Of a DNA stretch of 64,000 nt, positions 1 to 15,452 are shown piece by piece. The position numbers were made by a program, and so were the translations under genes. Position 1 is the stretch's first letter. Every line of letters begins with the position of its first letter. The stretch comes from Candidatus Omnitrophica bacterium UBA6233 (lineage in GTDB: Bacteria > Omnitrophota > Gorgyraeia > Gygaellales > Profunditerraquicolaceae). The notes under the pieces were generated by a model. The model was not told the DNA's origin. It worked only from the letters and a program-made list of their open reading frames with translations, and did no database searches. Location: NCBI GenBank assembly GCA_002440965.1, contig DJWJ01000011.1, positions 61,427-125,426 on the forward strand. The letters are read 5' to 3'.

Positions 1-49
1 GTACATCGCAGTAATTCCATACTTTCTGCACTATTTCATTTTCGCTCAT
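1..49 (-). CDS. hsdM: Type I R-M methyltransferase subunit HsdM, 5' end only. The gene starts at 49 and runs off the window edge.
   Basis: The reverse complement of 1-49 reads ATG AGC GAA AAT GAA ATA GTG CAG AAA GTA TGG AAT TAC TGC GAT GTA, translating to MSENEIVQKVWNYCDV. This matches the conserved HsdM N-terminus (compare EcoKI ..DLVAKLWKLCDNLRDGG). Only 16 codons are visible. Confidence 0.5.
   Translation of the reverse strand, partial: MSENEIVQKVWNYCDV
3..49. repeat. Direct repeat copy A (matching 1040-1086), covering the hsdM start region
   Basis: About 43 of 47 nt are identical to 1040-1086. The mismatches are ctgc versus tggg and one g/a. Both copies encode MSENEIV(Q/P)KVWNYCDV on the minus strand. 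Confidence 0.8.
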
Positions 50-317
50 AGATTTTACCTATCTTTCTTCATGCCATAGACTTAAATTTGTAGATTTCTC
101 AACAGAATATGTTATAATATTAATATGAGGCATTTAACTCTTGCTAAAACAAACCGCTACTTAAGAAACCGCGTTGCCCGTGCGATTTTACTCGGACGTA
201 CTACCATTAGTTCGGCCGCAGTGGAAGGTATCCATACTTGCAAACACACTCGCGCCAATGGCGTTTCCCCCAGCCGTTCAAAACACAATAGCGCCGCCGT
301 TTTATCCAAATAACATT

Positions 318-977
318 CTACACGTTTCTATCCGCTTTTTTCAAAGAATATTCTATAATCTTTCGAAAAATTATTTTCATCGGTACATAATTATGGCTAA
401 GCGCGGCACGCACTGCTGAAAAATACGGCTTTTCCCTCTTCTCTCCGGAAATAAGATAGAAATCAAAAGGCGGAAGTCCGGCCTGTAACCCCATCAATAC
501 CGCCAATAATCTCGCTAATCTGCCGTTACCTTCCCGAAAAGGATGGATCAGGACTAATTCAGCATGCGTTAGCGCAATAGCGTAACTTACCGCATCGATA
601 TCTCCCCGGCACGGCGTATAACGCGCAAGAATCTCCTTCTCAAAATCATCCATCAGCTGGGGAATATATGCAGCCGAGGCGAACTGGAATCCAGATTTGC
701 CGATATTGATATTGCGATATGTCCCTGCCCATTCGTATATCTTCCCTAACCAATTCTTATGCATAGCGCGAATGTCTGCCGCCGTAAATCGTTTGCCGGA
801 ATCTATGGTTTCAATATATTTCCCTAAAATTCGCGCGTGCTCGGAAATCTCCAAAGCCTCCATATCGCGCAAACGGGTAATCCCGCGCAGATTCATTAAA
901 ACCTTGCCGCGAGAACCAGGCTGAAGTTGCGCCTCCGGATAACCCGACACATCATATTTATCGCCTTTAGCGTTCAT
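318..977 (-). CDS. fic: Fic/Doc family protein (probable AMPylator or toxin)
   Basis: A 219 aa ORF carries the canonical Fic motif HPFREGNGRLARL. A GGAAG RBS lies 6 nt upstream. The gene sits 10 nt downstream of the hsdM-remnant stop. Confidence 0.85.
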   Translation of the reverse strand: MNAKGDKYDVSGYPEAQLQPGSRGKVLMNLRGITRLRDMEALEISEHARILGKYIETIDSGKRFTAADIRAMHKNWLGKIYEWAGTYRNINIGKSGFQFASAAYIPQLMDDFEKEILARYTPCRGDIDAVSYAIALTHAELVLIHPFREGNGRLARLLAVLMGLQAGLPPFDFYLISGEKREKPYFSAVRAALSHNYVPMKIIFRKIIEYSLKKADRNV

Positions 978-987
978 ATAATCTTCC

Positions 988-1086
988 TTATTTCAAATGC
1001 TCCACATAATCGCCGTAGCTGACGCCATCATCCCACAGCACATCGCAGTAATTCCATACTTTTGGGACTATTTCATTTTCACTCAT
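988..1086 (-). pseudogene. Truncated duplicate of the hsdM 5' end (32 codons then TAA)
   Basis: The reverse complement gives MSENEIVPKVWNYCDVLWDDGVSYGDYVEHLK*. This aligns with the HsdM N-terminal domain (EcoKI LVAKLWKLCDNLRDGGVSYQNYVNELASLLFLK) and stops where HsdM would continue. Confidence 0.6.
1040..1086. repeat. Direct repeat copy B (matching 3-49)
   Basis: See copy A. The similarity also extends weakly into the RBS-side sequence (ataggtaaaatct versus aataggaaatttt). Confidence 0.8.
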
Positions 1087-1102
1087 AAAATTTCCTATTA
1101 TA

Positions 1103-2002
1103 CTAATCCATACGATGTATCCAATACCATTCTCTAACATCCTGTCCATTATCTTTTAAAGCATAAACCGCAACAAAAGCAAAAGTTCCTTTTTGATCCA
1201 ATGAATCAATATTAAAAAGCACCGGTGATTTAGAAAATGGATTAGGGATAGGATTAAAACCTATTAATCGCGTTGAAACTTTAATATTTTCAAAATCCGC
1301 CTTCAACCCAACAATATCTTTAGACGTTTCCTGACATTTATCAACAGCCCATTTCCAAAATTTACGATAATCCCATGAAGATTCCTTTCCGCCCTGTGGA
1401 ATAGCATGCCAATAACCTTTACTTGCCAAATCAGAATCAAACAATTTCGCACCTGGCGTAACCCATTTATTAACTAATTTGACATAATCTCGCCAAGGAC
1501 AATCTCTAACTTCAGAAAACTCATCTAATACCTCATTTTTCCCCGGTCTTACCCATCTCTTATTGCGATAAACTTCTAATGGCATAATTGCACCGGTTCT
1601 TCCAAAAGTAACTACAAAAATTCCAAGATGTCTGCGTTTATTATTTGTATCAGCTAAATAATGGTTAAACTGTAACCAAATAGATTGACCAAAGGTTTTA
1701 AACTGATATTCTTTACATGGAGTAAGAATTAAAAAACTGTCAGTATTTTTTGCAATCAAATAAGTTTTTACATTAGGCAAAAATGCTAATGTTCCATAAT
1801 CACGTTTATAGAATTCTTGCCGGCTAATTATTTCGTTTTGTGAATCTAATAAAACTTGCTTTTCTACAGTTTTTTCTTTCTTTTCGATAGAAGGATTAAA
1901 GAAATTTACACTAACGCTAATAATTGCAGCTAATATAGTACAACCGCCACAAATTAAAGCGGCTATAATACCAACACTAAATCTTTTCTTATTTTTTATC
2001 AT
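1103..2002 (-). CDS. Hypothetical membrane-anchored protein (N-terminal TM helix), function unknown
   Basis: A 299 aa ORF has the N-terminal hydrophobic segment VGIIAALICGGCTILAAIISV. It overlaps the upstream ORF by 14 nt. I recognise no domain in it. Confidence 0.55.
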   Translation of the reverse strand: MIKNKKRFSVGIIAALICGGCTILAAIISVSVNFFNPSIEKKEKTVEKQVLLDSQNEIISRQEFYKRDYGTLAFLPNVKTYLIAKNTDSFLILTPCKEYQFKTFGQSIWLQFNHYLADTNNKRRHLGIFVVTFGRTGAIMPLEVYRNKRWVRPGKNEVLDEFSEVRDCPWRDYVKLVNKWVTPGAKLFDSDLASKGYWHAIPQGGKESSWDYRKFWKWAVDKCQETSKDIVGLKADFENIKVSTRLIGFNPIPNPFSKSPVLFNIDSLDQKGTFAFVAVYALKDNGQDVREWYWIHRMD

Positions 2003-2612
2003 TTATTTGTTTAATAACTAAATGTTTTTCCATCTCTCCAAGATTATCAGTCCACACTCCATCCCAAGATATTTCAAACACATCATATTTCCGAGAAATA
2101 AAATTATCCGCAACGATTTCTAATTCAACGCGCATAGTTGAATTAGCAGATATATGTCCTTCAAAATTATTAGGCGTTCCGTAAGTACAAATCCTGAATT
2201 TTTTTTCAACAAGAAAACCAAAATCGGCAGTATCTTCTTTGGATATCATTGGAAACATTGGATGACTTTCTGCCGGAGCCCAAGTTAATTGCTGAGGAAC
2301 AAATACATTTGCCCGGTAAAAATTACCATCTGCCTTCTTTTTTAGTATTCCAACAAGTAATATTCGCACATTCTTAGCAGAAGACCAAGGGCGTTTATTT
2401 TTAACAGATAAATGATAATAAATAACCGATGGGCCATTACTAAAATGCGTTAATTCACCTTTAAAGTTTTTAGGTTCTAACACTAAACGAGGACCAGCAA
2501 AGAAATCTCTAAATTTGTCACCCCAGATAGCCATAACAGCTACAGCAACAGTTCCAACAGCAGTTAACCAATCCGTTAGCTTTCCAAAATTTACAGAAAT
2601 ATCACACGCCAT
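1989..2612 (-). CDS. Hypothetical membrane-anchored protein, function unknown
   Basis: A 207 aa ORF has the N-terminal hydrophobic segment LTAVGTVAVAVMAIW. It lies 19 nt downstream of the hsdS stop. I recognise no domain in it. Confidence 0.5.
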   Translation of the reverse strand: MACDISVNFGKLTDWLTAVGTVAVAVMAIWGDKFRDFFAGPRLVLEPKNFKGELTHFSNGPSVIYYHLSVKNKRPWSSAKNVRILLVGILKKKADGNFYRANVFVPQQLTWAPAESHPMFPMISKEDTADFGFLVEKKFRICTYGTPNNFEGHISANSTMRVELEIVADNFISRKYDVFEISWDGVWTDNLGEMEKHLVIKQINDKK

Positions 2613-2631
2613 CGTCCCCTCCTTGCCAATA

Positions 2632-3873
2632 TCACTTTTTACTTAATTCTAACTTCCCCTTCTTTATTCGTTCCAACAAACTCTCGACAGGCTCATCATT
2701 CGGATCCGGCTCAACCAACTTGCCTTCGAAGGCTTTTTTCAAAATACTCTGTTTCAGTCGCTCAATCTTCTCCAGTCCTTGCTCAACGGCATCCTCAAGC
2801 AATTTTGCCCGTTCAAAACGAGATTCAATATTCTCAACAATCTTCACCTGTTCTTCAGGAGAACAAAATTTAAACGGAACCTTTTTAAAGTTTCTAGATG
2901 AAATCCCTGCAACCGTTGTCCCGGTTTTAGCTCTTTCTAATCTCTTTTGAAAAAAAGTTGACATTATCTGATACATTACGAATTTATCAAAATTGTCCGA
3001 TCTTAATAAAACCATTCTTTGCGCAATCGAGAATTTATAATCCGGGATTAGAGAAACTTCTCCCATAGGAGCTTCAGTAGTCATTAAGACATCACCTTTA
3101 TGTGGAATTCCTCTAGTCATATACTTCTTGTAAGTCTCCTCAGTAACATATCGAATATTTTCAAGTCTTATTTGACCATTCCGAATGTTTGAAGTCCGCA
3201 AATGTATAACACCCTTATCCGCATACGGTGGAGTTCTCCCGCGATAATCAATGATTTTAAAAATACTCTCAATAGGTTTTTCTTGTTCAATTTTCTCAAA
3301 CGCCGATTTAAACACTGCCTGGCGATAGCGCTTAATTTCCTGCTGCACGCGCTCCAGCGAATCCTTGGCGCTATCCAGCCGCGAAAACAAGCTCTCAATC
3401 TTGGCGACAATACGTTTTTGTTCGGGATAAGAAACTACCGGCACAGTCAGACACTCTAATTCTTTCGTTGGCACACGAAGCTGGCCAGCGGTTCCTGTCA
3501 TTCGGCCCCGTAAAAACCTTCGAACACTCGCCTGGAGTAAAAAGTAAAAGTAAAACTTATTGTCGACACAATCTGGCAAACGTATGACATGGAATTCCGT
3601 TGAACCCAATCCAATCCCATTCCTCAAACCTCCCATCAAGGCAATTTTACCGTTTTCCATACATGGCGTAATCTTGGCAAAAATAATATCTCCATCTTGA
3701 AATAGGGTAAACCTTTTTAACCCATCCGAAAGTTTAATCGTTTCCGACAAATCAAACCTGCCACTTTCCACTTCAACAGCTTTCATCGACAGGAAACTTA
3801 CTGTAACATCTGTCTTGGCCCGAGGGATCGCCTTCGCCGGATTAATTATTGCTACATCACCAAGTATAATCAA
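2632..3873 (-). CDS. hsdS: Type I R-M specificity subunit HsdS (two target-recognition domains)
   Basis: A 413 aa protein has two TRD-like halves separated and followed by conserved helical spacer regions (..LFSRLDSAKDSLERVQQEIKRYRQAVFKSAFE.. and ..ESRFERAKLLEDAVEQGLEKIERLKQSILKKAFEGKL). This is the typical HsdS layout. Confidence 0.85.
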   Translation of the reverse strand: MIILGDVAIINPAKAIPRAKTDVTVSFLSMKAVEVESGRFDLSETIKLSDGLKRFTLFQDGDIIFAKITPCMENGKIALMGGLRNGIGLGSTEFHVIRLPDCVDNKFYFYFLLQASVRRFLRGRMTGTAGQLRVPTKELECLTVPVVSYPEQKRIVAKIESLFSRLDSAKDSLERVQQEIKRYRQAVFKSAFEKIEQEKPIESIFKIIDYRGRTPPYADKGVIHLRTSNIRNGQIRLENIRYVTEETYKKYMTRGIPHKGDVLMTTEAPMGEVSLIPDYKFSIAQRMVLLRSDNFDKFVMYQIMSTFFQKRLERAKTGTTVAGISSRNFKKVPFKFCSPEEQVKIVENIESRFERAKLLEDAVEQGLEKIERLKQSILKKAFEGKLVEPDPNDEPVESLLERIKKGKLELSKK

Positions 3874-3980
3874 CTGTGCTCCTTAAATTCAATAATTTTC
3901 GCTCACCAATTCACCACAAAAGTTTAACCGTTATAAAGCGAAATGAACCATTGTAACTTATAAAGTTTTTGCTTACTTGA

Positions 3981-4706
3981 TTAAGAAATAAGGGATTCGA
4001 GATTGTTACGCAATTGAGCTTTAACAACATCAATATTAAGAGACCAAATATCAGCTAAAGACGAAATTGCCCCTTGAGTTTCCCATGGCATGATCGGCAA
4101 TTTACCATTAGTGACAAACGGCCCATCCGTCTCCAGAAGAACCTTCTCACGAGGCATTAACTTTATCAATTCCCGCCCTTTCGCACCTAATATCATTGCA
4201 GGACCGACACTAAACCAACAGCCCATTGTAATAGCCCGCTGCAATTCATTCGTTGTCCCAGAAAACCAATGTAATATCGCTGTCCCGGATCGAGGATATT
4301 CTTCAAGCAAATCCAGAACAGCATTGACAGCACACCTCGAATGAATACTCATAATCCTTCCACCTTGCTTTTCACACTCAGCTAAAACATTTAAAAATAT
4401 ATCCTTTTGCAATGGAAAGAATTCCTGATTCTTTGGCGTTCCGTCAAGACCTATCTCTCCAATAAACTGAACCTTCGCAACATCTGCCAGTAACATTTTT
4501 AATTCATTCGCTTTTTTATTCGCTATTTCAGGATGCAGCCCAAGGGCAACCTTAATATTTGTATATCCCGAGAATCTTTGTGACGTCACTTGCCAAGCTC
4601 TAGGGCTAGTCGTTACGACTAGAGTAAAAATATTTCGCTTTGAAACCATTGGAAGCAACTTTAAAGAATCCTGATAAAGATCAAGATGGGAATGAAAATC
4701 AATCAT
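3981..4706 (-). CDS. TatD-family metal-dependent nuclease/hydrolase (QatD-like)
   Basis: A 241 aa ORF has the N-terminal MIDFHSHLD (the HxH motif of TatD) and a TIM-barrel-type conservation pattern. It overlaps the upstream QueC-like gene by 4 nt. Confidence 0.8.
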   Translation of the reverse strand: MIDFHSHLDLYQDSLKLLPMVSKRNIFTLVVTTSPRAWQVTSQRFSGYTNIKVALGLHPEIANKKANELKMLLADVAKVQFIGEIGLDGTPKNQEFFPLQKDIFLNVLAECEKQGGRIMSIHSRCAVNAVLDLLEEYPRSGTAILHWFSGTTNELQRAITMGCWFSVGPAMILGAKGRELIKLMPREKVLLETDGPFVTNGKLPIMPWETQGAISSLADIWSLNIDVVKAQLRNNLESLIS

Positions 4707-5983
4707 ATAACCCCATGCTTTATTAAAAGCTGCCCGAGTTCATCCAACCCCCGAGATAAGACTCCTTCATATTGAGGACGATCAGTCGATGACGCAAAAG
4801 AAAGCGCTCCGCCTGCGAAGCGTTGTATCCCATATTTTTTATAATTTAAATAGGCCATAGCCACCGCCCCAATATCGTTAGGACCAAATTCACGGCCCGC
4901 TTTAGACAAGTCTTGAAAATGATAATTATTCACCGTGGTATCAGTTAATTGTGCTTTTAAGAAGGCTGCACGCCTAACCAAGCAAGGCAAACATCTGCCA
5001 CAATGAACTAGTTTATATCGACCAAACTTCCCACAACTTGTAGACTCCCCTATTAAACCAGTCAATTTTGCCTGATCACAACATCCACTAAGAATCTCGC
5101 CTTTAGTTTTAAATCGAAAAGGGAAAGATAATTTTACTGGGATACTTAGCATGTCCCAAATTTCTTGAAGGCCTCCAGCATAAAGGGGATGCGTGGTTTT
5201 CGTGCTCAAGCTGCCGCTTCTTCCTGAATTAAGTGATGGATTAAGACTCATAAAGCCGTTCTCGGGAACAACAACTTCTATAGGTGCTTCGGATCGAGAA
5301 TTTAAGGCAGATGCCGCAAGAAGCCCGTATGCAAAAAAGATTATTGAGCGTCCCCGAGTTGAACTTTCACACCTATTAAACAAGCTTACTGGATGGCTCC
5401 AATTAAAATACCGACTAGAAGCACCCAAGGTGTTTGCAAACCTCATTTGTGATTTTCTATCACCTTTGACGACTTGAGAAACAAATAAAGGTTTTCTCCC
5501 CGTAGCTGTCAAGTCAATTGCGCCAACAAGACTATCCATACCACCCGAAAGTAACGAAATACAATCTGCATCATAAGAAGCGAGAACTGATGCTTGTGGA
5601 GGTGGCTCAGCTCCAGGAAGAAAGTTTAATTTCCAAAAATCACCAGTTAAAACACGTAAAATCGATTCTAACCGAGATTTTTGTTGTACCCATAGTCCGT
5701 GTTCACAAAGATAAACATCCACTTCAATAACGCGCGTCCATCCATCGGAACTGTTCGACCTCTTACATGATAAATCAGCAGCTGCCACTGCTAACGCAAT
5801 TGACAGAAAATCCCACACGCGTACAGTCGGACTAAAACCTTTCTTTTTAACATCACTACGCAATGTTGGCGCAATGTGCCCAACACCATCACGATGTGAA
5901 TAAGAATACATCGAGAAATAGTTGACGTCATTCACTAGTGTTGCTGGCAAAATAGAATCTGGGGCACAAATAACTTTGTTCAT
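4703..5983 (-). CDS. QueC-like PP-loop ATPase with an extra N-terminal domain (QatC-like)
   Basis: A 426 aa ORF has the PP-loop SLLSGGMDSLVGAIDL about 145 aa from the N-terminus. It has a C-terminal Cys cluster CGKFGRYKLVHCGRCLPC, like the Zn site of QueC. No queD, queE, queF or tgt neighbours are present. Confidence 0.8.
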   Translation of the reverse strand: MNKVICAPDSILPATLVNDVNYFSMYSYSHRDGVGHIAPTLRSDVKKKGFSPTVRVWDFLSIALAVAAADLSCKRSNSSDGWTRVIEVDVYLCEHGLWVQQKSRLESILRVLTGDFWKLNFLPGAEPPPQASVLASYDADCISLLSGGMDSLVGAIDLTATGRKPLFVSQVVKGDRKSQMRFANTLGASSRYFNWSHPVSLFNRCESSTRGRSIIFFAYGLLAASALNSRSEAPIEVVVPENGFMSLNPSLNSGRSGSLSTKTTHPLYAGGLQEIWDMLSIPVKLSFPFRFKTKGEILSGCCDQAKLTGLIGESTSCGKFGRYKLVHCGRCLPCLVRRAAFLKAQLTDTTVNNYHFQDLSKAGREFGPNDIGAVAMAYLNYKKYGIQRFAGGALSFASSTDRPQYEGVLSRGLDELGQLLIKHGVI

Positions 5984-6837
5984 ATAGCACCTTCATATAC
6001 ACTAAAAGTATTCGCTAATGCTTCTTGAATAACAGTTGCCATCTGTCTCGAATCTAGATTGGCATTCCCTTCTCGCAACTGACGAATCTGGGCAGCAATT
6101 TCAGCCCTCATGTATTCACCCATTTCATTCACCCGTTGCACAACGTCTTTCGGATCTAACTTGGCGCTTTCAAAAAGTTGGCCGATATCAAGCTGCAATC
6201 GTGTGGATGCCTCATTTGCCAAAAAAAGCTCAACCACTGTCCAAATATCCGCGTCGTTCATTTTAAGCAAATTCACATTCGGCTGAATTCGTAACAAATC
6301 AGACATTGCACCATTCATAGAGTTTCGACACGATTCTTCATCAAGGCTCCCTCCATCTGATACAACCAAACGGCCGATTTCATCAATCACATCCCTTGCC
6401 GTTGACGTCCTAGCCACTAAAGCATTAATCCACTGGTTAATACGTTGATCAGTACCATCTCGTACTGTTTGAAAAAACGAAACCAGGCCAGCCGCAGTCC
6501 TAGCTGACAAACGCATACGTTTCGCCACGTTTTTCGCACCGCCCATCCCCAGATGGGAATAATGACCAACTGCTTTTCTAAAATGCCCCTCGTCTCCCGT
6601 TCTAGCAAAAATCCCCATTTCTCTTCGGGCATTTGCAAATCGTCGAGCAGGAGCAACACTCACCGGCTGATTCACTTCCAATGGTTGATCTGGTGGCGCA
6701 GTTTCCCTTGGATTATTCCCATTAGGCTCATCTGCTGGCACACTAGGAATAATCAATGGATTACCAATCTGATCAAGCCAAGGAGGATCAAAACCTACCC
6801 CGGCACCAGGCCCTGAACTTGAAGTAGACGTTCCCAT
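5980..6837 (-). CDS. QatB-like protein of unknown function
   Basis: A 285 aa ORF has a Gly/Ser/Pro-rich N-terminus (MGTSTSSSGPGAGVGFDPPW..) followed by a helical region. Its position between the NTPase and the QueC-like gene matches Qat gene order. Confidence 0.5.
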   Translation of the reverse strand: MGTSTSSSGPGAGVGFDPPWLDQIGNPLIIPSVPADEPNGNNPRETAPPDQPLEVNQPVSVAPARRFANARREMGIFARTGDEGHFRKAVGHYSHLGMGGAKNVAKRMRLSARTAAGLVSFFQTVRDGTDQRINQWINALVARTSTARDVIDEIGRLVVSDGGSLDEESCRNSMNGAMSDLLRIQPNVNLLKMNDADIWTVVELFLANEASTRLQLDIGQLFESAKLDPKDVVQRVNEMGEYMRAEIAAQIRQLREGNANLDSRQMATVIQEALANTFSVYEGAI

Positions 6838-8706
6838 TTATTTTCTTCCTTGCATTGAGATAGCATTCTTAACTTGTACAGGAGTATTCGCATCCTGCGA
6901 CCAGCGCTGCAGCATATCTTGAGCCCACGCCTCTCCTTTAATATGAGGAATCAGTGGCGCGGGGCGATTAGCCGCTGGTATCGTTTCAAGATTTGATACA
7001 AATAATGGCCCTAGTCCCGCGAACGCCCTAGTTACATGAAGACATCGAATTAAAGATGACAACGACCATTGCTCCGCCCGCGAAAGTCTCAATAATCGGG
7101 ACAATATACTTCCACACTCTACTTCACCAAGAGTTTGCAATTGAGTAATCATAGGCTGCTGAATAACTTCTCTTATCTCGGCTAACGCTGTTAACAATTC
7201 TTTCCCTCTAACAGAAAGTTCATCAAAACTTGCAAAATTCATCGCCTTATCTCGGCTCAAATATAATAATGGGCGAAGATCAATAGCAGCTAAACGTGGA
7301 GTAAGTTTTAACCATTCGGCAATAAAGGGTACATTCCAGCAAGGATCAGGTGAGCTATACACCTCTCCTTTTGCAAGAGCATCCTCAATTGCCTTCAAAA
7401 AAGAAGGTTTTCCATCGCTGCTTTCGGAAACTTTTCTTACTAAATATTCAAATGCCAAAGCCGGGGCACAACGCTCAAATAGCTGCAATTTCACTAATTC
7501 CTCAAAGGCTACAGTCATACCTTGGCTTCTTGCAACCGTATCTCGAATCATGAGATTATTTAAAAATCTTTTTATCAATCTAGGATTACCTGCGATATTG
7601 TCTGCCGTCGCCATAAGACCGGCAAGTTGATCTGCCAAATCAATTTGAGAACCAATCTTGGTGACTTCTGCACCAAAAGCCTCTTCCATTGTCTTCCGTG
7701 TCAGACAGCCTTTCCAAGAATCTCGAGCTGCTTCTAAAATTTTAACTTGTGCCTCTGCTAATACTTCTTTTAAAATTACCCCACGCCTCTGTTCCAAGTC
7801 AGCTAACAACAGAATCAAATAGGCTTTTACTTCACTGATGCTTAACCGAGGGACTTCCAGCGGAACCTGTATTAACTTGTCAAAATAACTAGTGACTAAA
7901 TTATCTTCCAAGTCATTAATCCCAAAATGCGCTCTAACCGCATTGCGGATCATCTGCTGATCAGCGGCAATAACAAAAGCCGTGCGGGGCAAAAATAGAA
8001 GTAACCGCATGGCCTCCAATGTAGAAATCGCAGTATTAGGAAGACATCGATCAAGGTCATCAACTAAGACAACCAGAGTAATATCTAAATCTTTTAGGAC
8101 CTCCTCAAAAGCTATTCTTAATCCTGCTATTTCTTTTGGAAGCGACTTTAATTCTTTATCTCTTAACAGACCTTTCAGTTCAGGCTCAAGCTCGGCATAA
8201 GCATTCTTAAGCTTCGTTAAATCTTCCTCAGACGGATTCCCCTGAGAGTTCGCAAGTCCACTGACAGCCCCAATGACTGCTCCAAGAGGCCCAGCCATCG
8301 TACCGCCGACAGCCATTCCGGTTAAAACCGGTGCAACAAGTTTTCCGACCCGGAACCATTTAACACGTTTTGCAAATTCGAGAGCCTTATCCAACGGTGT
8401 TTTTCTTTTTTCTGCTTCATCAAGCAAAGCGTCGGAAACAACTTGTAACAATGCCATTCTGGCATCATCGAAACCCTGATAAAGCCAAGCGTTAAAATTT
8501 ACAAAAATGTATTTCTTTCTTGATTCTTCATCTTTCTGTAAACAAACACCTATCATTTTCACTAACGATGATTTGCCAGATCCCCAGTTACCAGACACGC
8601 CTATCGACACCGGCTGACCATTTGATTCGCGAATAAGTTGAGCTGCTGTTTCTGCAACAACAGTAAAATTTAGTAAATCCGTCGTCGTTTCTACATCGTG
8701 CCACAT
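6838..8706 (-). CDS. KAP-family P-loop NTPase (QatA-like)
   Basis: A 622 aa ORF has the Walker A motif GVSGNWGSGKSSL (the KAP signature GxWGxGKS) and the Walker B motif LVVLVDDLDRC. It has a hydrophobic insert LVAPVLTGMAVGGTMAGPLGAVIGAV typical of KAP NTPases. An AGGAGG RBS lies 6 nt upstream. Confidence 0.75.
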   Translation of the reverse strand: MWHDVETTTDLLNFTVVAETAAQLIRESNGQPVSIGVSGNWGSGKSSLVKMIGVCLQKDEESRKKYIFVNFNAWLYQGFDDARMALLQVVSDALLDEAEKRKTPLDKALEFAKRVKWFRVGKLVAPVLTGMAVGGTMAGPLGAVIGAVSGLANSQGNPSEEDLTKLKNAYAELEPELKGLLRDKELKSLPKEIAGLRIAFEEVLKDLDITLVVLVDDLDRCLPNTAISTLEAMRLLLFLPRTAFVIAADQQMIRNAVRAHFGINDLEDNLVTSYFDKLIQVPLEVPRLSISEVKAYLILLLADLEQRRGVILKEVLAEAQVKILEAARDSWKGCLTRKTMEEAFGAEVTKIGSQIDLADQLAGLMATADNIAGNPRLIKRFLNNLMIRDTVARSQGMTVAFEELVKLQLFERCAPALAFEYLVRKVSESSDGKPSFLKAIEDALAKGEVYSSPDPCWNVPFIAEWLKLTPRLAAIDLRPLLYLSRDKAMNFASFDELSVRGKELLTALAEIREVIQQPMITQLQTLGEVECGSILSRLLRLSRAEQWSLSSLIRCLHVTRAFAGLGPLFVSNLETIPAANRPAPLIPHIKGEAWAQDMLQRWSQDANTPVQVKNAISMQGRK

Positions 8707-8965
8707 GAGTGACCTCCTAAAATATATTTTCTAATTGCTTTACTAGAACCAAATATTTTCCTAATTTTAATAATTCCCTTAAAACTTTCCAGCCCCGCGT
8801 TGATGTTCTCAATGATCTTAGTAGTTAAAACATCCTAACCGAGAAGATTATCGATGCCGATTAGACTCTGTCCCTTGAACTCAAAAGTGTCAAAACTAGT
8901 TTTATCCCGATAACAAATATATCTATCTGAACCTATAAAACAATTTAGATATAGTTGTTCACCAC

Positions 8966-11644
8966 TCACCCCACCAACGCCGTATTCAACTCCTCAATCA
9001 CTCCATCCAGATTATCTCCAAATACTTCTTTAGCCTTAATAATTCCTCCGCTGGCGCTGAAGGGCGGCAGGAGGAAATCGTTTTTATCCACACTACCGGA
9101 ACCGGCGATGTGCTCAGAGATCATCGTCAGCCACTGGATTTGTTTTGCGCTGAAAGTCTTACCTAAAAATTGCTGGTTTTTCAGCCATTCCTGAAAGCGA
9201 TGCTCAACATGTTCCTTAAACGGCTCCAGGACCTCCTCTTGATGTATAGCAAAACGCACCAGGGAAACGATATCGGTTAATTGTTTCTGAATCGAGGCCG
9301 GGCGCACTTTGGATTTTTCCAGCTGTTCATAGGCGCGCCAGAGAGTATCGGTGGTAAAGCCGTAAGGCGGCATTTCGATTCTTTCGGCTAATTCGCGGAT
9401 CTCTTCATAGGTAACATGACGCTTTTTATACGGCAGGTTATAGAGGATCTGCAAAGCAGTAATTTTGTCTTTGTTCTCGGCGATAAACTGCTCAAATTTC
9501 TTGACGATGGACGAAGCTTTATCTTTGGACTGCTGATCGAATCCTGACTGGGTAATTGTATCTATAGTAACAGTATCAATGGTTTGTTCGGTCTTTTTAT
9601 GAAGCACGGTTAAAAGCTCGCGAAATTCAGGATTATCAAAAGGCGCGCAGGCTTGGTCCCGATCAGCGACGATATCCGGATCAATGACTGAGACCAGATC
9701 GTTGACGATGTTAGACAAAGACTTGCCGCCGGATACGGCCTTGATCCGCTCAATATCCCGGGGTTCCAGATCCAGATCCAGGCGCGACAAGCGCGAGGCC
9801 AGGCTGGATAAAGTGTCATTGTCGCGGATGCCGATGGCAATATTATTCAGAAGTTTTAGCGTAGGAACGCTTTTTTGCCTATCCAACGGGAAGCTCTGGG
9901 TCTTCTCGCTTTCGCACACGCCTACGGCGTCAACCAGAATAAAATGGGTCTTAGTTTTGGCGTCAGGAGTTACAGCCATAAGGTCATCGGAATCAATTAC
10001 CCGCGTGCCGCGGCCTTTCATCTGCTCAAAGTATATTGCGGATTTAACGTCGCGCATAAAAAGAATACATTCCAGCGGCTTAATGTCGGTACCGGTAGAA
10101 ATCATGTCCACGGTTACGGCAATCCGGGGATTGAAACTATTGCGAAAGGCGGCGATCAGGTCGTCGGTGCTCTCCTGGGTGCGGTAGGTGATCTTCTTAC
10201 AGAAATCATTGCCTTTGCCGAATTCTTCGCGCACAATCTCGGTGATGTCTTCGGCGTGGCTGTCGTCTTTGGCAAAAATCAGGGTTTTGGGCACTTCAGT
10301 GCGGCCGGGGAAAATTTCCGTAGAAAGTTTATCCTTAAATTCCCGAATAACCGTGCGGATCTGGTCTTTAACTACAATACTGCGGTCAAGCTGATCCGGG
10401 GCATATTCGATGTCTTCGTCCAACTTTTCCCAACGGAGTTTGCGAGTAAGCCGGTCGCGTTTATCCACGTAGAAACCGGAAGGGATTTTGCCACCCTCTT
10501 CGGTGGTCTTAGTGCGGATGCGGTACACATCAAAGCCAACGTTGACTTTATCCGCGACTGCCCGGTTATGATCGTATTCCATGACTAAGTTTTTGTTGAA
10601 AAAACCGATGGTCTGATTTGAAGGAGTTGCGGTTAGGCCGATGATAAAAGAATCAAAGTATTCCAGGACCTGACGCCAAAGGTTGTAAATGGAGCGGTGG
10701 CATTCATCAACGATGATGAAATCAAAGGTTTCTACGGGAATTTTGCCGCTGAATTGCACTGCTTGCGGATCAATATCCGGGGCATCGGATTCATAAAGAG
10801 ACTTTTCATCGAGACTGGCGTCCAAATCCTGGTCACCTTTAAGCATGGAAAACAGGCGCTGAATAGTGGTAATGCAGACTTTGGCGCCGGGGTCAAAGAC
10901 GTTAGTGGTCATGTGCTGGACGATATAAAGATCAGTAAAGTTGCGATTATCGTCAAAAGGGATATAATTCTGGAACTCTTTTCTGACTTGCCGGCCCAGG
11001 GAACAGCGGTCAACCAAAAAGAGAATCCGGCGGGCTTTGGCAAATTTAATCAAGCGGTAAATCTCGCTGATAGCGGTGTAGGTTTTGCCACTGCCGGTAG
11101 CCATTTGCAACAGGGCGCGCGGCTTGGCTTGGCGCAAAGATTTTTCCAGGTTAGTGATAGCCTCGATCTGGCATTGGCGGAGATTATAGGGATCCAAAGG
11201 CGGTAATTCGCGCAGGCGCTGACGCAAAGATTTATCCTGTTCAAGCCAATCAGCTAACGTATCCGGGGAATGAAAAGCGAATACGCGGCGCGAACGGGCG
11301 TCCGGATCGCGGTTATTGCGGTAAAAAGTTTCTATGCCGGTGGATTCGTAAGCAACCGGAAGAATATCATCAACTCGGGGAAGATTATCGAGAACCGAAG
11401 AGTTATAGCGGGCGGTTTGCTCGGCAACTCCGGAAAGAGTAATCCCCTCAGCTTTAGCTTCTACTGTACCCACGGCTTTGCGGTCGACAAAAAGCATGTA
11501 ATCAGCCGGGCCGGATTTGGTAGGAAATTCACGCACAGCTACTCCCCTGCCGGCGGAAAGATTAATCTTACGGATATCCTGAATAATCCAGCCTGCTTCT
11601 TTTAATAACCCGTCAATCACCTGCCTCGCTTCGGCTTCGCTCAT
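8966..11644 (-). CDS. hsdR: Type I restriction enzyme R subunit HsdR
   Basis: An 892 aa ORF has the HsdR N-terminal nuclease region MSEAEARQVIDGLLKEAGW..KSGPADYMLFVDRKAVGTVEAKAEG. It has SF2 helicase motif I (MATGSGKTYTA) and motif II (IIVDECHRS). Its GC content is higher than the rest of the window. Confidence 0.9.
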   Translation of the reverse strand: MSEAEARQVIDGLLKEAGWIIQDIRKINLSAGRGVAVREFPTKSGPADYMLFVDRKAVGTVEAKAEGITLSGVAEQTARYNSSVLDNLPRVDDILPVAYESTGIETFYRNNRDPDARSRRVFAFHSPDTLADWLEQDKSLRQRLRELPPLDPYNLRQCQIEAITNLEKSLRQAKPRALLQMATGSGKTYTAISEIYRLIKFAKARRILFLVDRCSLGRQVRKEFQNYIPFDDNRNFTDLYIVQHMTTNVFDPGAKVCITTIQRLFSMLKGDQDLDASLDEKSLYESDAPDIDPQAVQFSGKIPVETFDFIIVDECHRSIYNLWRQVLEYFDSFIIGLTATPSNQTIGFFNKNLVMEYDHNRAVADKVNVGFDVYRIRTKTTEEGGKIPSGFYVDKRDRLTRKLRWEKLDEDIEYAPDQLDRSIVVKDQIRTVIREFKDKLSTEIFPGRTEVPKTLIFAKDDSHAEDITEIVREEFGKGNDFCKKITYRTQESTDDLIAAFRNSFNPRIAVTVDMISTGTDIKPLECILFMRDVKSAIYFEQMKGRGTRVIDSDDLMAVTPDAKTKTHFILVDAVGVCESEKTQSFPLDRQKSVPTLKLLNNIAIGIRDNDTLSSLASRLSRLDLDLEPRDIERIKAVSGGKSLSNIVNDLVSVIDPDIVADRDQACAPFDNPEFRELLTVLHKKTEQTIDTVTIDTITQSGFDQQSKDKASSIVKKFEQFIAENKDKITALQILYNLPYKKRHVTYEEIRELAERIEMPPYGFTTDTLWRAYEQLEKSKVRPASIQKQLTDIVSLVRFAIHQEEVLEPFKEHVEHRFQEWLKNQQFLGKTFSAKQIQWLTMISEHIAGSGSVDKNDFLLPPFSASGGIIKAKEVFGDNLDGVIEELNTALVG

Positions 11645-11730
11645 ATTCTTTTCTCAAATAAAAACCCGACCGTGTGGCCGGGTTGAATATAGTTATAAAT
11701 ATAAAATGATAAAAAATTAGATAAAGACAT
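11641..11730 (-). CDS. Candidate 29-codon leader ORF translationally coupled to hsdR (ATGA overlap)
   Basis: The reverse complement is AGGAGaaaaaATG..., encoding MSLSNFLSFYIYNYIQPGHTVGFLFEKRI*. The stop TGA overlaps the hsdR ATG as ATGA. A hairpin plus T-run lies inside this ORF. It falls below the ORF-track length cutoff. Confidence 0.35.
   Translation of the reverse strand: MSLSNFLSFYIYNYIQPGHTVGFLFEKRI
11652..11684 (-). terminator. Intrinsic-terminator-like hairpin plus T-tract on the minus strand
   Basis: On the minus strand the sequence is AACCCGGCCACACGGTCGGGTT followed by TTTATTTG. The stem is 6-8 bp with a 4-nt loop. It ends 8 nt before the hsdR ATG. Confidence 0.35.
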
Positions 11731-11750
11731 TTTTTCTCCTAAGTTGTTTG

Positions 11751-11779
11751 ATTATAACACTTTTGGGGGGAGAAATACA
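11751..11779 (-). promoter_or_regulatory. Putative sigma70 promoter with an extended -10 (TGtTATAAT) upstream of the hsdR leader
   Basis: The minus strand reads gTGtTATAAT at 11760..11751. The -35 (TGTATT) is weak. The predicted TSS is about 14 nt upstream of the AGGAG of the leader ORF. Confidence 0.3.
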
Positions 11780-11805
11780 GGAAAAAGCGGCCCCCTGATT
11801 TTTTA

Positions 11806-13212
11806 CTATCGGGGTGAGTTTTTTAGCAATAGGATTACTTGGGAGAGGTTGCGCAGGGCGGATTCCGGGCGGTAGGAGGCGACTTTGGAGTTTACTTCCC
11901 TCACCTTTTCATAGCCGTAGGTTTGGATTAGCCCCAGGTAGGTTTCGATTTTTTCTAAGTCTTTGGGCTCATTGAGTTGGGCGGAAAGCTGGCAGGCTTG
12001 TTGAGTCAAATCAGGGGTGTATTTATCGGATAATGCCTGGAGCGCTTGCCGGAATTGTTCCGGGGATTGCAAAGGATTCAGGCGGTAGTCGTTAGCCGGG
12101 CGTTTGTCGAATTCTCCTTCTTTTTCGGGCCTGTGCCTGTAAACTTCCAGAATATTTTCCTTTTCCAGTTCGGTTATGGCGCTGGTAATCGAGCGCTCAG
12201 AGATGTAATATATCCGGCTTAAGTCGGCGTTACTTCTGAACCAATAGGGATTATGGCTGGATCTTTGGGCTTCGCTCAGAGAAACTAAAAACATATATTT
12301 TGCCGCAAAGGAAAGTTTTTGGCAGAAACCATAATCCCAATAAGTATCCGGAATAGTAATGTTTTCCGTAAAGGATGTGTAGATGAGTTCAAGATTTTTG
12401 CTCCAGGGTTTATGCTGGATGAGGCCGTATTTTCGGGTTAGCTTTCTTAGAGGCTGAAAAAGATTAAAATAGTAATTATTGGTGTAACCCAGGGCTTGGC
12501 CGAATTCCGGATAGTTGATTTTTATGACGGATGAATGTTCGCTTTGGGCTTTTTTTGCCAGATACAAATACAGGTCAAAGGCTTTTTCCGAGTGGCTGGT
12601 GAAGAGTTCAAATAAAAGAGGATTGGGCGCGGAAGTTAAAAGGCTAACCGGCAGTTTCAAACCCGGCAGTTGTTGAGGCTGGATAGGCGGATTAAGGCTT
12701 AATTCGATTTTAGAGATATAATCCAGCAGTTTCCCGGCTTGCCTCGGGCTTTCGGTGTAAACGGCGAATTCGTAGTTGTCGCGCAAAGAGGCGCGGGTCC
12801 AGTTAAAACTGCCGAGGATACAAATTTTGGAATCGATGACCAGGCCTTTGCCGTGAAGCACGGCTTTAGAGCTATCGATGGCTGCATTTACGCCGGCTTG
12901 CCGGAGGCGTTTATAGGCGTTGTAATTGACTTTGAAGGTAGTGTCATCCAGGATAACCTTCACGTATACGCCTCTATTTTTAGCGCTGATCAGGCCTTCC
13001 AGGAGGATTGAAGCGGGGTTATCAGTGGGCGCGGGTTCCACGCTAATGAGATAGATGGCTACGTAGATTGATTTTTGCGCTTTTTGGATAGCTTGGAGGG
13101 TAGTCAGGAAATAATCTTTGCCGATGAGAATATCGCTGCGCTCGCCGGCAAAAACAGGCGCAAAGCTAAAGGCAAATAAAGTTATAAGGATTATGAGTAA
13201 GTATCGACGCAT
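11806..13212 (-). CDS. Secreted PLD-family (single HKD motif) protein with a C-terminal region of unknown function
   Basis: A 468 aa ORF has an N-terminal signal-peptide-like segment MRRYLLIILITLFAFSFAPVFAG. It has the HKD motif LHGKGLVIDSKICILGSFNWT. The C-terminal ~250 aa are unassigned. The coding sequence is GC-rich. Confidence 0.7.
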   Translation of the reverse strand: MRRYLLIILITLFAFSFAPVFAGERSDILIGKDYFLTTLQAIQKAQKSIYVAIYLISVEPAPTDNPASILLEGLISAKNRGVYVKVILDDTTFKVNYNAYKRLRQAGVNAAIDSSKAVLHGKGLVIDSKICILGSFNWTRASLRDNYEFAVYTESPRQAGKLLDYISKIELSLNPPIQPQQLPGLKLPVSLLTSAPNPLLFELFTSHSEKAFDLYLYLAKKAQSEHSSVIKINYPEFGQALGYTNNYYFNLFQPLRKLTRKYGLIQHKPWSKNLELIYTSFTENITIPDTYWDYGFCQKLSFAAKYMFLVSLSEAQRSSHNPYWFRSNADLSRIYYISERSITSAITELEKENILEVYRHRPEKEGEFDKRPANDYRLNPLQSPEQFRQALQALSDKYTPDLTQQACQLSAQLNEPKDLEKIETYLGLIQTYGYEKVREVNSKVASYRPESALRNLSQVILLLKNSPR

Positions 13213-14536: not shown

Positions 14537-14600
14537 CGTTCGACTCCCTTTGGTCGCTCACGATGACCCTGAGCAAGCACAGCGCGTCGAAGGGTCATTC
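14537..14600. repeat. R1 hairpin repeat, copy 1, between lpxL and the GT2 gene
   Basis: The sequence cgTTCGACTCcctttggTCGCTCACgATGAcCCTGAG..AAGGGTcAT is homologous to the elements at 32967-33023 and 53964-54066. The inverted arms are ATGACCCT and AGGGTCAT. Confidence 0.7.
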
Positions 14601-15452
14601 TTTCCAAAATCTCCTAAACATATACCATTGCTCCGGGTAACTACGGACATACTCTTCCAAAACCATCTTGTATCGAATAAGAATCTCGCGAATATCCTTT
14701 TCATTATCCCCGGTAGGAACATATTCAATAGGCTTATTCATTACCAAATCAAAACTATCATCTTTATTTCTAAGCATAAACCCCGGAATTATCCGGGCTT
14801 TGGTTTTTAAAGAGATAGCCGCGGGGCCTAAGGGAAAAACGCTGGGTTTAGCGAAAAAATCGATAACTACGCCTTTACCTGTAAAATCGCGGTCTCCTAC
14901 CAAACCCAATAATTCATTCTTTTTTAAAGCTCTCAGGCAACCTTTGGCAGCGCTTCCCAGAGGAAAAACCCTTACGCCTTTACTCTCTCTTTGCCGATTA
15001 AAAAAAGCGTCTACCGCTTTGGATTTATGACGCAAGGCAACGGTTATGAAAGGATAACCCAGCATCGAAATTACTACCCCTCCCAATTCCCAATTTCCCA
15101 GATGCGCGGTTAACAAAATTACTCCGTTGCCCTCGGTAAGAGCGCTATCCACATAATGCATATTTCTTACATGGATATTTTCTTTTATATATTTCATATC
15201 CAGCTTGTCAAAACGAAAAAAATCGACGAGATATTTGGCAAAATTCCGGAAAAGCTGCCTGCGAACGATGGAAATCTCACGATTGCCCTTTTCCGGAAAG
15301 ATAGCTTTAAGATTATCAACCACCCACTTCCGGTCAAGAAAAGCAACCATAGAATACAAATCAGCGGCAAACTCTGCCAGCCGGTAACCGTTCTTTACCG
15401 GCATACTTAATGCGAGCAGTTGGGCAAGTTTATATAAGAAATACTTGGGCAT
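14595..15452 (-). CDS. lpxL: Lipid A biosynthesis (Kdo2-lipid IVA) acyltransferase, LpxL/HtrB family
   Basis: A 285 aa ORF shows the typical N-terminal pattern YFLYKLAQLLALSMP..RRQLFRNFAKYLVDFF of LpxL-type lysophospholipid acyltransferases. Confidence 0.75.
   Translation of the reverse strand: MPKYFLYKLAQLLALSMPVKNGYRLAEFAADLYSMVAFLDRKWVVDNLKAIFPEKGNREISIVRRQLFRNFAKYLVDFFRFDKLDMKYIKENIHVRNMHYVDSALTEGNGVILLTAHLGNWELGGVVISMLGYPFITVALRHKSKAVDAFFNRQRESKGVRVFPLGSAAKGCLRALKKNELLGLVGDRDFTGKGVVIDFFAKPSVFPLGPAAISLKTKARIIPGFMLRNKDDSFDLVMNKPIEYVPTGDNEKDIREILIRYKMVLEEYVRSYPEQWYMFRRFWKE

Follow-up and report, generated by a model that had tools for sequence, protein, structure and literature searches.

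Embedded genes are frequent in Type I restriction-modification (R-M), BREX and DISARM systems. In the survey that reports this, 96.7% of the embedded genes are co-oriented with the host system, and the PDC families originate from that work (Payne et al., 2024, bioRxiv 10.1101/2024.01.29.577857); a term search of the paper for recombination or hotspots found no mention of either. The anticodon nuclease PrrC is embedded in EcoprrI, a Type IC R-M system (PMC3874165), and TgvAB interrupts an active Type I cluster of VPI-2 in V. cholerae, the two systems being thought complementary (PMC11411939). With respect to gene order, the staphylococcal hsdRSMS arrangement has hsdR first and one hsdS ahead of hsdM (PMC10030836), and a literature search for 'hsdR-hsdS-hsdM' returned only an unrelated paper. 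Here, we describe a Type I R-M locus with embedded defence genes from Candidatus Omnitrophica bacterium UBA6233, contained in a 64,000-nt stretch of contig DJWJ01000011.1 (hereafter the window). It was compared with related loci, numbered L001 onwards, on metagenome-assembled genome (MAG) or metagenome/genome contigs. The locus is probably an intact Type I system of the order hsdR-hsdS-hsdM (R-S-M) that serves as a recombination-anchored carrier of exchangeable defence cargo.

All of the genes across 318-13212 of the window lie on the minus strand. The features of the locus, in the order of transcription, are as follows.

11806-13212, minus strand: PLD-family (Nuc/DrmC-like) nuclease of 468 aa, directly upstream of hsdR (PLDc_2, E 1e-23; NucT and DrmC models).
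8966-11644, minus strand: hsdR, 892 aa, predicted intact restriction/translocase subunit (ResIII, SWI2_SNF2, Helicase_C, EcoEI_R_C and HSDR_N domains).
8966-9740, minus strand: terminal 775 nt at the 3' end of hsdR; by mismatch count, this is where the recombination tract relative to the sister strain L002/L003 has its left arm.
8766-8918, minus strand: decayed remnant of some 51 codons from the 3' end of a different hsdM, matched by tblastn to aa 438-488 of the L052 HsdM.
6838-8706, minus strand: qatA, KAP-family P-loop NTPase of 622 aa (PADLOC QatA, E 2e-124; Pfam KAP_NTPase, E 3e-57).
5980-6837, minus strand: qatB, 285 aa (PADLOC QatB, E 8e-31; PF28083 QatB in the precomputed annotation).
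4703-5983, minus strand: qatC, QueC-like protein of 426 aa (PADLOC QatC, E 1e-86; Pfam QueC, E 7e-5).
3981-4706, minus strand: qatD, TatD-family DNase of 241 aa (PADLOC QatD, E 3e-81; Pfam TatD_DNase, E 1.5e-41).
2632-3873, minus strand: hsdS, 413 aa from a TTG start, or 384 aa from an alternative ATG (Methylase_S; PADLOC Specificity_I, E 2e-94).
1989-2612, minus strand: orf207, a cargo gene without a family match, with a predicted N-terminal membrane helix followed by an Ig-like beta-sandwich.
1103-2002, minus strand: orf299, a cargo gene without a family match, overlapping orf207 by 14 nt.
990-1088, minus strand: 5' stub of hsdM, 32 codons and then a stop, with 91.5% identity over 94 nt to the true hsdM start.
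318-977, minus strand: Fic/DOC-domain gene, 219 aa, the PADLOC candidate PDC-S04 (Pfam Fic, E 3e-17; PDC-S04, E 2e-65).
1-49, minus strand: start of the predicted functional hsdM, which continues off the window and encodes 484 aa on the identical contig L001.

The QatABCD system is complete, its four neighbouring genes overlapping or abutting in the order A-B-C-D at 3981-8706, and it occupies the 5,092-bp interval between hsdR and hsdS. The 2.6-kb interval between hsdS and hsdM holds orf207, orf299, the hsdM stub and Fic/PDC-S04. Thus, non-hsd genes with defence-model matches lie between same-strand hsd genes, and neither gap of the window contains a transposase or integrase. An earlier note on this DNA had described hsdR and hsdS as pointing in the same direction on either side of a Qat-like cassette, which the domain and PADLOC matches bear out, and the 32-codon hsdM remnant (1088-990) and the hsdM start at the edge (49-1) that it recorded are both present. 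These two are not the only hsdM sequences, as it had held, since a third fragment lies at 8918-8766 between hsdR and qatA. The locus that it had called split open does not lack an hsdM, since on L001 the full gene is found just off the window.

The contig L001 is 100% identical to bases 1-10977 of the window and extends beyond its edge. The Fic protein of the window is also encoded on six metagenome contigs, four of which match the window at 100% wherever they overlap. On L001, hsdM is complete, encoding 484 aa with the HsdM_N and N6_Mtase domains and the sequences DPACGTGGF (aa 170) and NPPF (aa 255); it therefore has the motif I and the NPPF motif IV of the N6-adenine methyltransferase of a Type I system. 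Among solved structures, it is closest to 2okc (E 6e-132) and EcoKI M (E 1e-90). HsdR combines a PD-(D/E)xK nuclease with an SF2 translocase, as shown by D..EAK (aa 48-64), GSGKT at 184, DECH at 313, TAT at 338 and QMKGRGTR. HsdS contains two target recognition domains (TRDs) parted by conserved helices in the layout TRD1-CR1-TRD2-CR2, where CR denotes a conserved region; CR1 lies at about 3296-3423 and CR2 at about 2632-2830, and Methylase_S matched in two stretches. These results indicate that, as judged from the sequence, the Type I system is intact and not broken, with full-length hsdR, hsdS and hsdM carrying their catalytic motifs. The enzyme is predicted to work still as an R2M2S1 complex, and the embedded systems would act independently of it.

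Across the relatives, CR1 and CR2 of HsdS are nearly invariant and the TRDs differ, and the conserved regions follow the HsdM lineage. With one hsdS, no significant inverted repeats and no recombinase in the window, the locus does not have the makeup of a phase-variable hsdS inverton. TRD1 of the window (3424-3873) is clearly related to the TRD1 of the Omnitrophota relative L009 (5384-5830) and of Streptomyces youssoufiensis L020 (8553-9000), sharing for example ITPCMENGK and GSTEFHV; outside TRD1, the window HsdS is just 29% identical to the S. youssoufiensis protein. This recognition domain seems, from such matches, to be common to different phyla.

The scores against the models of the classical families are below the equivalog cut-offs throughout: 401 versus 729 bits for PRK11448, 197 versus 550 for restrict_EcoAI, 92 versus 243 for hsdM TIGR00497, and 100 versus 662 for HsdS PRK09737. 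At the equivalog level, used as a proxy for complementation and antibody cross-reaction, the proteins do not belong by sequence to the classical Type IA (EcoKI) or IB (EcoAI) families. The system is therefore treated as a separate subfamily, neither IA nor IB.

The spacing of the genes could also be read as decay, with hsdR and hsdS being orphans of different systems that ended up in one defence island and form no working enzyme. The distances between hsdR and hsdS (5 kb) and between hsdS and hsdM (2.6 kb) fit such a dismembered system, as do the three hsdM fragments, which would record a history of breakage, and the composition of hsdR, which is unlike that of hsdS. The full length and intact motifs of the three genes argue against decay, as does the tracking of the HsdM lineage by the HsdS conserved regions, and three further observations described below point the same way: the recurrence of the same trio in the same order, the overwhelmingly synonymous changes in the imported hsdR and hsdM tracts, and the shared richness of hsdR and hsdM in GC at third codon positions (GC3). 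We consider a dismembered system very improbable.

The relatives were collected by an HsdM search of genomes, one per species, and then by a metagenome scan that added 24 loci. The HsdM relatives fall into two groups, one from MAGs of Candidatus Omnitrophota (91-93% identity) and the other from Actinomycetota (55-57%); the corresponding HsdR identities are 80-97% (Omnitrophota-type relatives) and 41-43% (Actinomycetota). In Promicromonospora, Streptomyces and Pseudonocardiaceae (L013, L015-L017, L019 and L020), hsdR, hsdS and hsdM form a compact operon with nothing between the genes. The compact Actinomycetota operons and L037 have 4-nt stop/start overlaps or short spacers, and in L013, L015 and L020 a stop codon overlaps the next start codon at one junction or at both. 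The metagenome loci provided further compact examples with HsdM identities of 55-66% (L037, L039, L043 and L045, with an hsdR/hsdS overlap in L042). Every related locus with sufficient upstream DNA has R, then S, then M, and the trio in this order was found in more than 25 loci across phyla. A second R-S-M system, in L052-L055, has the same order, its HsdM and HsdR being 60% and 49% identical, respectively, to those of the window system.

Since the order of the hsd genes is conserved in distant relatives, it was not created by insertions. As far as the compared sequences tell, R-S-M is the native order of this subfamily. The alternative, that the order arose in this lineage when insertions rearranged a canonical hsdR-hsdM-hsdS or hsdM-hsdS-hsdR operon, draws on the fact that Type IC systems and EcoKI (R, M, S; PMC12707154) are ordered differently, and on the hsdM stubs, which show that hsdM sequence was duplicated or moved. 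It is at odds with the cargo-free compact operons with stop/start overlaps in Actinomycetota and the metagenome loci, with the divergent second system in L052-L055, and with the mention of hsdRSM-type orders for staphylococci (PMC10030836); it is scarcely tenable and, on the gene orders compared, already contradicted. The order had been called atypical in the earlier note, which is correct with respect to the classical order in E. coli; within its own subfamily, it is native and occurs in compact form in Actinomycetota. The same note had named an identical gene order in distant relatives, along with uniform composition, as a finding that would speak against insertions, and such conservation of order is seen for the hsd genes and not for the cargo.

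Two of the relatives deviate in detail. In L043, a second hsdS-like gene (2257-2910) lies 3' of hsdM, giving the order S-M-S as in staphylococcal hsdRSMS; a second hsdS after hsdM was seen only in this distant locus and is absent from the present lineage. Downstream of hsdM, L001 carries AbiD (PADLOC, E 8e-74), RhuM and more genes. In L010, a frameshift near codon 519 divides hsdR (3104-5849) into two open reading frames (549 and 386 aa), reflecting a pseudogene or an assembly error.

The exchange of cargo is seen most directly in the comparison with the sister strain L002/L003. Over 3,383 nt (13123-9741), corresponding to PLD and the first 1.9 kb of hsdR, there are 0 mismatches between L002/L003 and the window, and in the last 775 nt of hsdR there are 79 (about 90% identity). 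Homology is lost wholly across the cargo and both TRDs, with CR1 being 92% and CR2 72-77% identical. Near-identity is back at about 2504-2562, inside orf207, with 9 mismatches in the next 2.4 kb. A second divergent tract relative to L002 comprises the last ~85 nt before hsdM and the first 800-1,000 nt of hsdM, after which identity returns; it spans window position 133 to about -745 (L001 10845-11720) and has ~85 mismatches. Of the differing codons, 57 in HsdR and 55 in HsdM are synonymous, as opposed to 13 and 2, respectively, that are non-synonymous. The mostly synonymous divergence of both tracts suggests purifying selection, and the 2.4 kb of near-identity between them suggests that the exchange was patchy or happened twice.

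No repeats flank the Qat cassette, and no transposase or integrase lies beside it. The identical flanks, together with the divergent homologous arms in hsdR and orf207, are the pattern left when homologous recombination, crossing over within hsd genes, replaces one allele by another. This comparison indicates that the swap between the window and L002 was a homologous recombination anchored in the hsd genes and not a point insertion, as far as aligned sequences can tell. Two other proposals were discarded. A transposon-type insertion of Qat was rejected in view of the missing flanking repeats and recombinase and of the absence of a tRNA within 40 kb; co-adaptation of the swapped HsdR C-terminus with the HsdM N-terminus was dropped because the differences are nearly all synonymous.

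The hsd relics provide a second record of cargo movement. The relic at 8918-8766 aligns with aa 438-488 of the L052 HsdM at 62.7% identity over 51 aa (tblastn, E 1.8e-12) and is interrupted by an in-frame stop and a 2-nt deletion (RDKTSFDTFEFKGQSLIGIDNLLG*DVLTTKIIENINAGLESFKGII in the window versus RDKTSLDIFWLKDKSLTDLDNLPDPDVLAAEIIENIEAGLESFKGIIEKLGK* in L052, where * is a stop). In L052-L055, which comprise two Omnitrophota MAGs and two contigs, the hsdM of the other R-S-M system is immediately followed by a Qat cassette with a nucleotide identity of about 90%, whose QatA is 91-92% identical in protein sequence to that of the window. The nucleotide homology between these loci and the window spans 8909-3960 and thus begins 203 nt upstream of qatA. 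The position of the same cassette directly 3' of that type of hsdM elsewhere indicates that Qat brought about 150 nt of a foreign hsdM 3' end along. As the relic and the shared homology show, Qat formerly sat right after another hsdM, and we infer the direction of transfer. A repeat (8749-8777/9018-9046) and the peptide GIIKIRKIFG had been considered as a 3' stub of hsdR (12 aa, E 0.004); this was rejected, the segment being the tail of the foreign hsdM.

The 5' stub of hsdM at 1088-990 breaks after GAGCA, exactly at the start of the Fic ribosome-binding site. Such stubs also occur twice each in L011 (62 and 41 nt) and L035, and once each in L046, L049, L050, L051 and L021. All of them begin at nt 1 of hsdM, and their break points all differ. 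In both L011 and L035, two nested stubs in the hsdS-hsdM gap point to at least two successive additions beside the hsdM start; the stubs are located at 7204-7265 and 8471-8511 in L011, and at 7686-7754 and 8376-8441 in L035. In L046, a 3' stub of hsdR at 3010-3090 (27 codons, 70% identity, internal stop) lies just after an intact hsdR and mirrors the hsdM 5' stubs.

The recurrence of the hsdM stubs, always from nt 1 and 41-211 nt long, suggests a preferred zone, and the cargo borders coincide exactly with the stop codon of hsdR and the start codon of hsdM. Both would be expected if a dedicated mobile element, such as a transposon, an integron-like site-specific recombinase or an IS200/IS605-type element, targeted the ends of the hsd genes, and a gene resembling a Y1 transposase (p177) is indeed present in the hsdS-hsdM gap of L011 and after hsdM in L001. 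Conversely, neither Qat nor Fic has terminal inverted or direct repeats around it or a recombinase beside it, the break point is different at each stub, and the swap between the window and L002 is flanked by divergent homologous tracts in hsdR and orf207, as is typical of homologous recombination. Placement of the cassettes by such an element is thus quite improbable. The Y1_Tnp (IS200-like) gene of L011 (7938-8474, 177-178 aa, E 3e-8) lies directly before an hsdM stub, and its counterpart in the window lineage (L001 15737-16270), following hsdM, is 75% identical. This gene is possibly a mobile element with a part in the rearrangements.

The related loci differ mainly in what the gaps contain. 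Over 19 loci, 72 predicted proteins of gap cargo form 56 clusters, and the cargo between hsdR and hsdS is distinct in each type of locus (L034 and L036 are apparently one locus), as listed below.

Window: QatABCD.
L002/L003: a 195-aa protein and PDC-S06 (E 3e-234), a PrrC-related AAA_13 protein.
L009: a GHKL-ATPase-type protein and a Dam-like methyltransferase, besides two unknown proteins.
L010: a HerA-like protein.
L011: three proteins, of which one has an HNH domain.
L029: SIR2-HerA.
L034/L036: a TIR/PDC-S60 protein.
L035: PD-Lambda-5.
L038: PDC-M19.
L032 and L046: unannotated proteins.

The hsdS-hsdM gap contains varied combinations of Fic/PDC-S04, a Hypoth_Ymh HEPN protein, PDC-S31, PDC-S01, a DUF6036 pair and orf207/orf299. 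L033 and L046 likewise have Fic immediately ahead of hsdM, as do the short contigs L028 and L049. There are at least two cargo gaps inside the operon, between hsdR and hsdS and between hsdS and hsdM, in addition to variable positions before hsdR and after hsdM. PLD is found beside hsdR only in the window lineage and the sister strain; none of the other related loci has a PLD homologue adjoining hsdR, and L011 and L035 have a distant PLD-like match elsewhere.

The cargo might also be functionally coupled to the Type I enzyme in the manner of PrrC and EcoprrI, so that Qat, Fic or orf207/orf299 would sense inhibition of R-M or be held in check by it, and embedding would be needed for the mechanism instead of merely offering a handy site. 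Its strict co-orientation and tight packing in the operon are consistent with coupling, as are the PrrC and TgvAB precedents (PMC3874165, PMC11411939) and the presence of the PrrC-related AAA_13 protein (PDC-S06) in the same gap of the sister strain. In addition, all contexts in which the Qat cassette was seen had it joined to a Type I operon, these contexts having been recovered via Qat or hsd homologues. However, unrelated systems fill the same gap in near-identical backbones, and the position of Qat varies, being either after hsdM or between R and S. Furthermore, QatABCD was originally validated as a stand-alone system. Taken together, coupling is unlikely.

The base composition separates the hsd genes from their cargo. 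The GC content of the window is 42.2%, and the mean GC3 of its genes is 0.418 (sd 0.064). GC3 is 0.545 for hsdR, 0.533 for PLD and 0.561 for hsdM, versus 0.31-0.35 for the Qat genes, 0.216 for orf207 and 0.21 for orf299, with hsdS (0.39) and Fic (0.47) between these values. This contrast between GC3-rich hsdR and hsdM and AT-rich cargo is also seen in L002, L009 and L010. In codon usage, the distances from 30 core genes are largest for PLD (z 3.1), orf207 (2.8), orf299 (2.3) and qatC (2.1), and those for Fic, hsdM, hsdS and qatA are unremarkable. PLD is the strongest compositional outlier of the island, with a coding-strand GC skew of -0.22 and the codon-usage z of 3.1. The positive plus-strand skew over hsdR and PLD was considered as a sign of inversion or separate origin and rejected for hsdR, whose negative coding-strand skew recurs in relatives and is thus a property of the gene.

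The patchy composition noted previously is therefore real in both GC3 and codon usage, although the contrast lies between hsdR/hsdM and the cargo, and not between hsdR/PLD and the rest. Likewise, the proposal of serial horizontal insertion into one hotspot can be kept in part: the patchy composition, the cargo differing from locus to locus, the sister-strain swap and the three hsdM relics speak for serial acquisition, whereas the presence of at least two gaps and variable flanks speaks against a single hotspot.

The surroundings of the operon were also inspected. Upstream of PLD lie housekeeping genes, namely cobA, glycosyltransferases and the lipid A acyltransferase (14595-15452, minus strand). 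As for a border of the island, no tRNA was present within 40 kb and no integrase was found. About 300 C-terminal residues of the PLD nuclease have no family match. A 9-bp terminator-like hairpin lies between PLD and hsdR at 11663-11684.

These results suggest how an intact R-S-M system would carry exchangeable cargo. In this reading, the conserved hsd genes act as homology arms: DNA arriving from related loci undergoes recombination within hsdR, within hsdM or within the conserved hsdS helices, and the material between is replaced, a step displayed by the comparison with the sister strain. New cargo would be anchored by homology at one end, in hsdM or hsdR, and joined illegitimately at the other, leaving truncated hsd copies as scars. 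Embedding would give the cargo co-orientation and possibly co-expression, as well as co-transfer with the operon.

Several points weigh against this reading. Single-crossover integration of a circular intermediate with a short hsdM fragment would give the same product as the one-sided model. The window/L002 comparison gives no direction, and either allele could be ancestral. The related loci are all MAG or metagenome contigs, in which mis-assembly across repeated hsd segments is possible; the 100%-identical contigs counter this. A promoter and terminator scan did not rise above chance as judged from shuffled sequence (31 versus 27.9 and 19 versus 14.5) and lends no support to co-transcription. 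HsdR, HsdM and HsdS all fall under the NCBIfam equivalog cut-offs of the classical families, and methylation, restriction and the functions of Qat and Fic are predicted from homology throughout.

A broader proposal may be drawn from the intact, recombination-anchored carrier, one that we put forward tentatively and regard as somewhat unlikely. The conserved hsd genes of the R-S-M family would serve as portable homology arms from which defence islands grow inside out, cargo being added repeatedly at the hsdM start and the hsdR end by one-sided, homology-anchored illegitimate recombination, and the nested hsdM and hsdR stubs would record the order of acquisition. If this is true, Type I operons would be cassette-capture platforms for defence systems, a recombinase-free analogue of integrons, and new anti-phage systems would be represented by rare cargo without annotation, of which the membrane-anchored orf207/orf299 pair is an example.

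Neither orf207 nor orf299 has a Pfam, NCBIfam or PADLOC match, and they form 30 and 14 clusters, respectively, among 5.8 billion proteins. The AlphaFold2 (AF2) model of orf207 has a pLDDT (predicted local distance difference test) of 91 and weak fold matches only; a model of orf299 has a pLDDT of 67 and no PDB match. In two other Type I loci, an orf299 homologue is located 3' of hsdS: that of L058 falls between hsdS and hsdM, and that of L059 belongs to a run of cargo genes following hsdS. The orf207/orf299 pair is, from its sequence and setting, a candidate new defence system. Elsewhere, the pair adjoins methyltransferases and GmrSD in L023 and L024, a homologue of orf207 lies beside a prophage integrase in L026, and some homologues occur in non-defence contexts (L056 and L025). 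The cargo 3' of hsdS in L059, the locus with the orf299 homologue, also includes a Peptidase_U49 (Lit-like) gene at 4405-5328.

Defence genes embedded in Type I R-M systems are already known and have been used for discovering systems, and the present locus does not overturn the current understanding. Its apparent disorder is the ordinary state of the R-S-M subfamily, and neither annotation pipelines nor human readers should call such loci broken. The locus provides a sequence-level record of the route of exchange and shows that a cassette can change its position from one Type I operon to another. It also provides candidate defence genes from an uncultivated phylum, namely orf207/orf299 and several cargo genes of the sister loci.

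Compared with the classical enzymes, the system resembles EcoKI (IA) and EcoAI (IB) in that its HsdM is nearest the EcoKI type, its HsdR matches the PRK11448 and EcoAI models and has EcoEI_R_C, and its HsdS has the TRD1-CR1-TRD2-CR2 layout; it differs in gene order, which is R-M-S in EcoKI (PMC12707154) and R-S-M here. As in the staphylococcal hsdRSMS loci, hsdR comes first and hsdS precedes hsdM. Unlike in those loci, hsdM is followed here by AbiD and RhuM, and there is a single HsdS with two full TRDs.

With EcoprrI/PrrC, the locus shares the presence of a non-R-M defence gene within a Type I operon, and the hsdR-hsdS gap of the sister strain holds a PrrC-related AAA_13 protein; a PrrC/RloC-like AAA_13 gene is absent from the window and was found only in the sister L002/L003, as PDC-S06. 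The two differ in gene order and hsd family, and any physical or regulatory coupling at the present locus would be hypothetical. TgvAB is likewise a multi-gene defence system interrupting a Type I cluster; the cargo there is a GmrSD-like Type IV system, and here it is QatABCD, the activity of the present locus being a prediction.

The embedded systems of Payne et al. are alike in having same-strand defence genes between hsd genes, and six of their PDC families were matched here or in the sister loci: PDC-S04 (Fic), PDC-S06, PDC-S31, PDC-S01, PDC-S60 and PDC-M19. Unlike those systems, the present locus has the order R-S-M, belongs to an uncultivated lineage, is loaded with cargo in both of its internal gaps, and retains relics and tracts that record the movement of that cargo.

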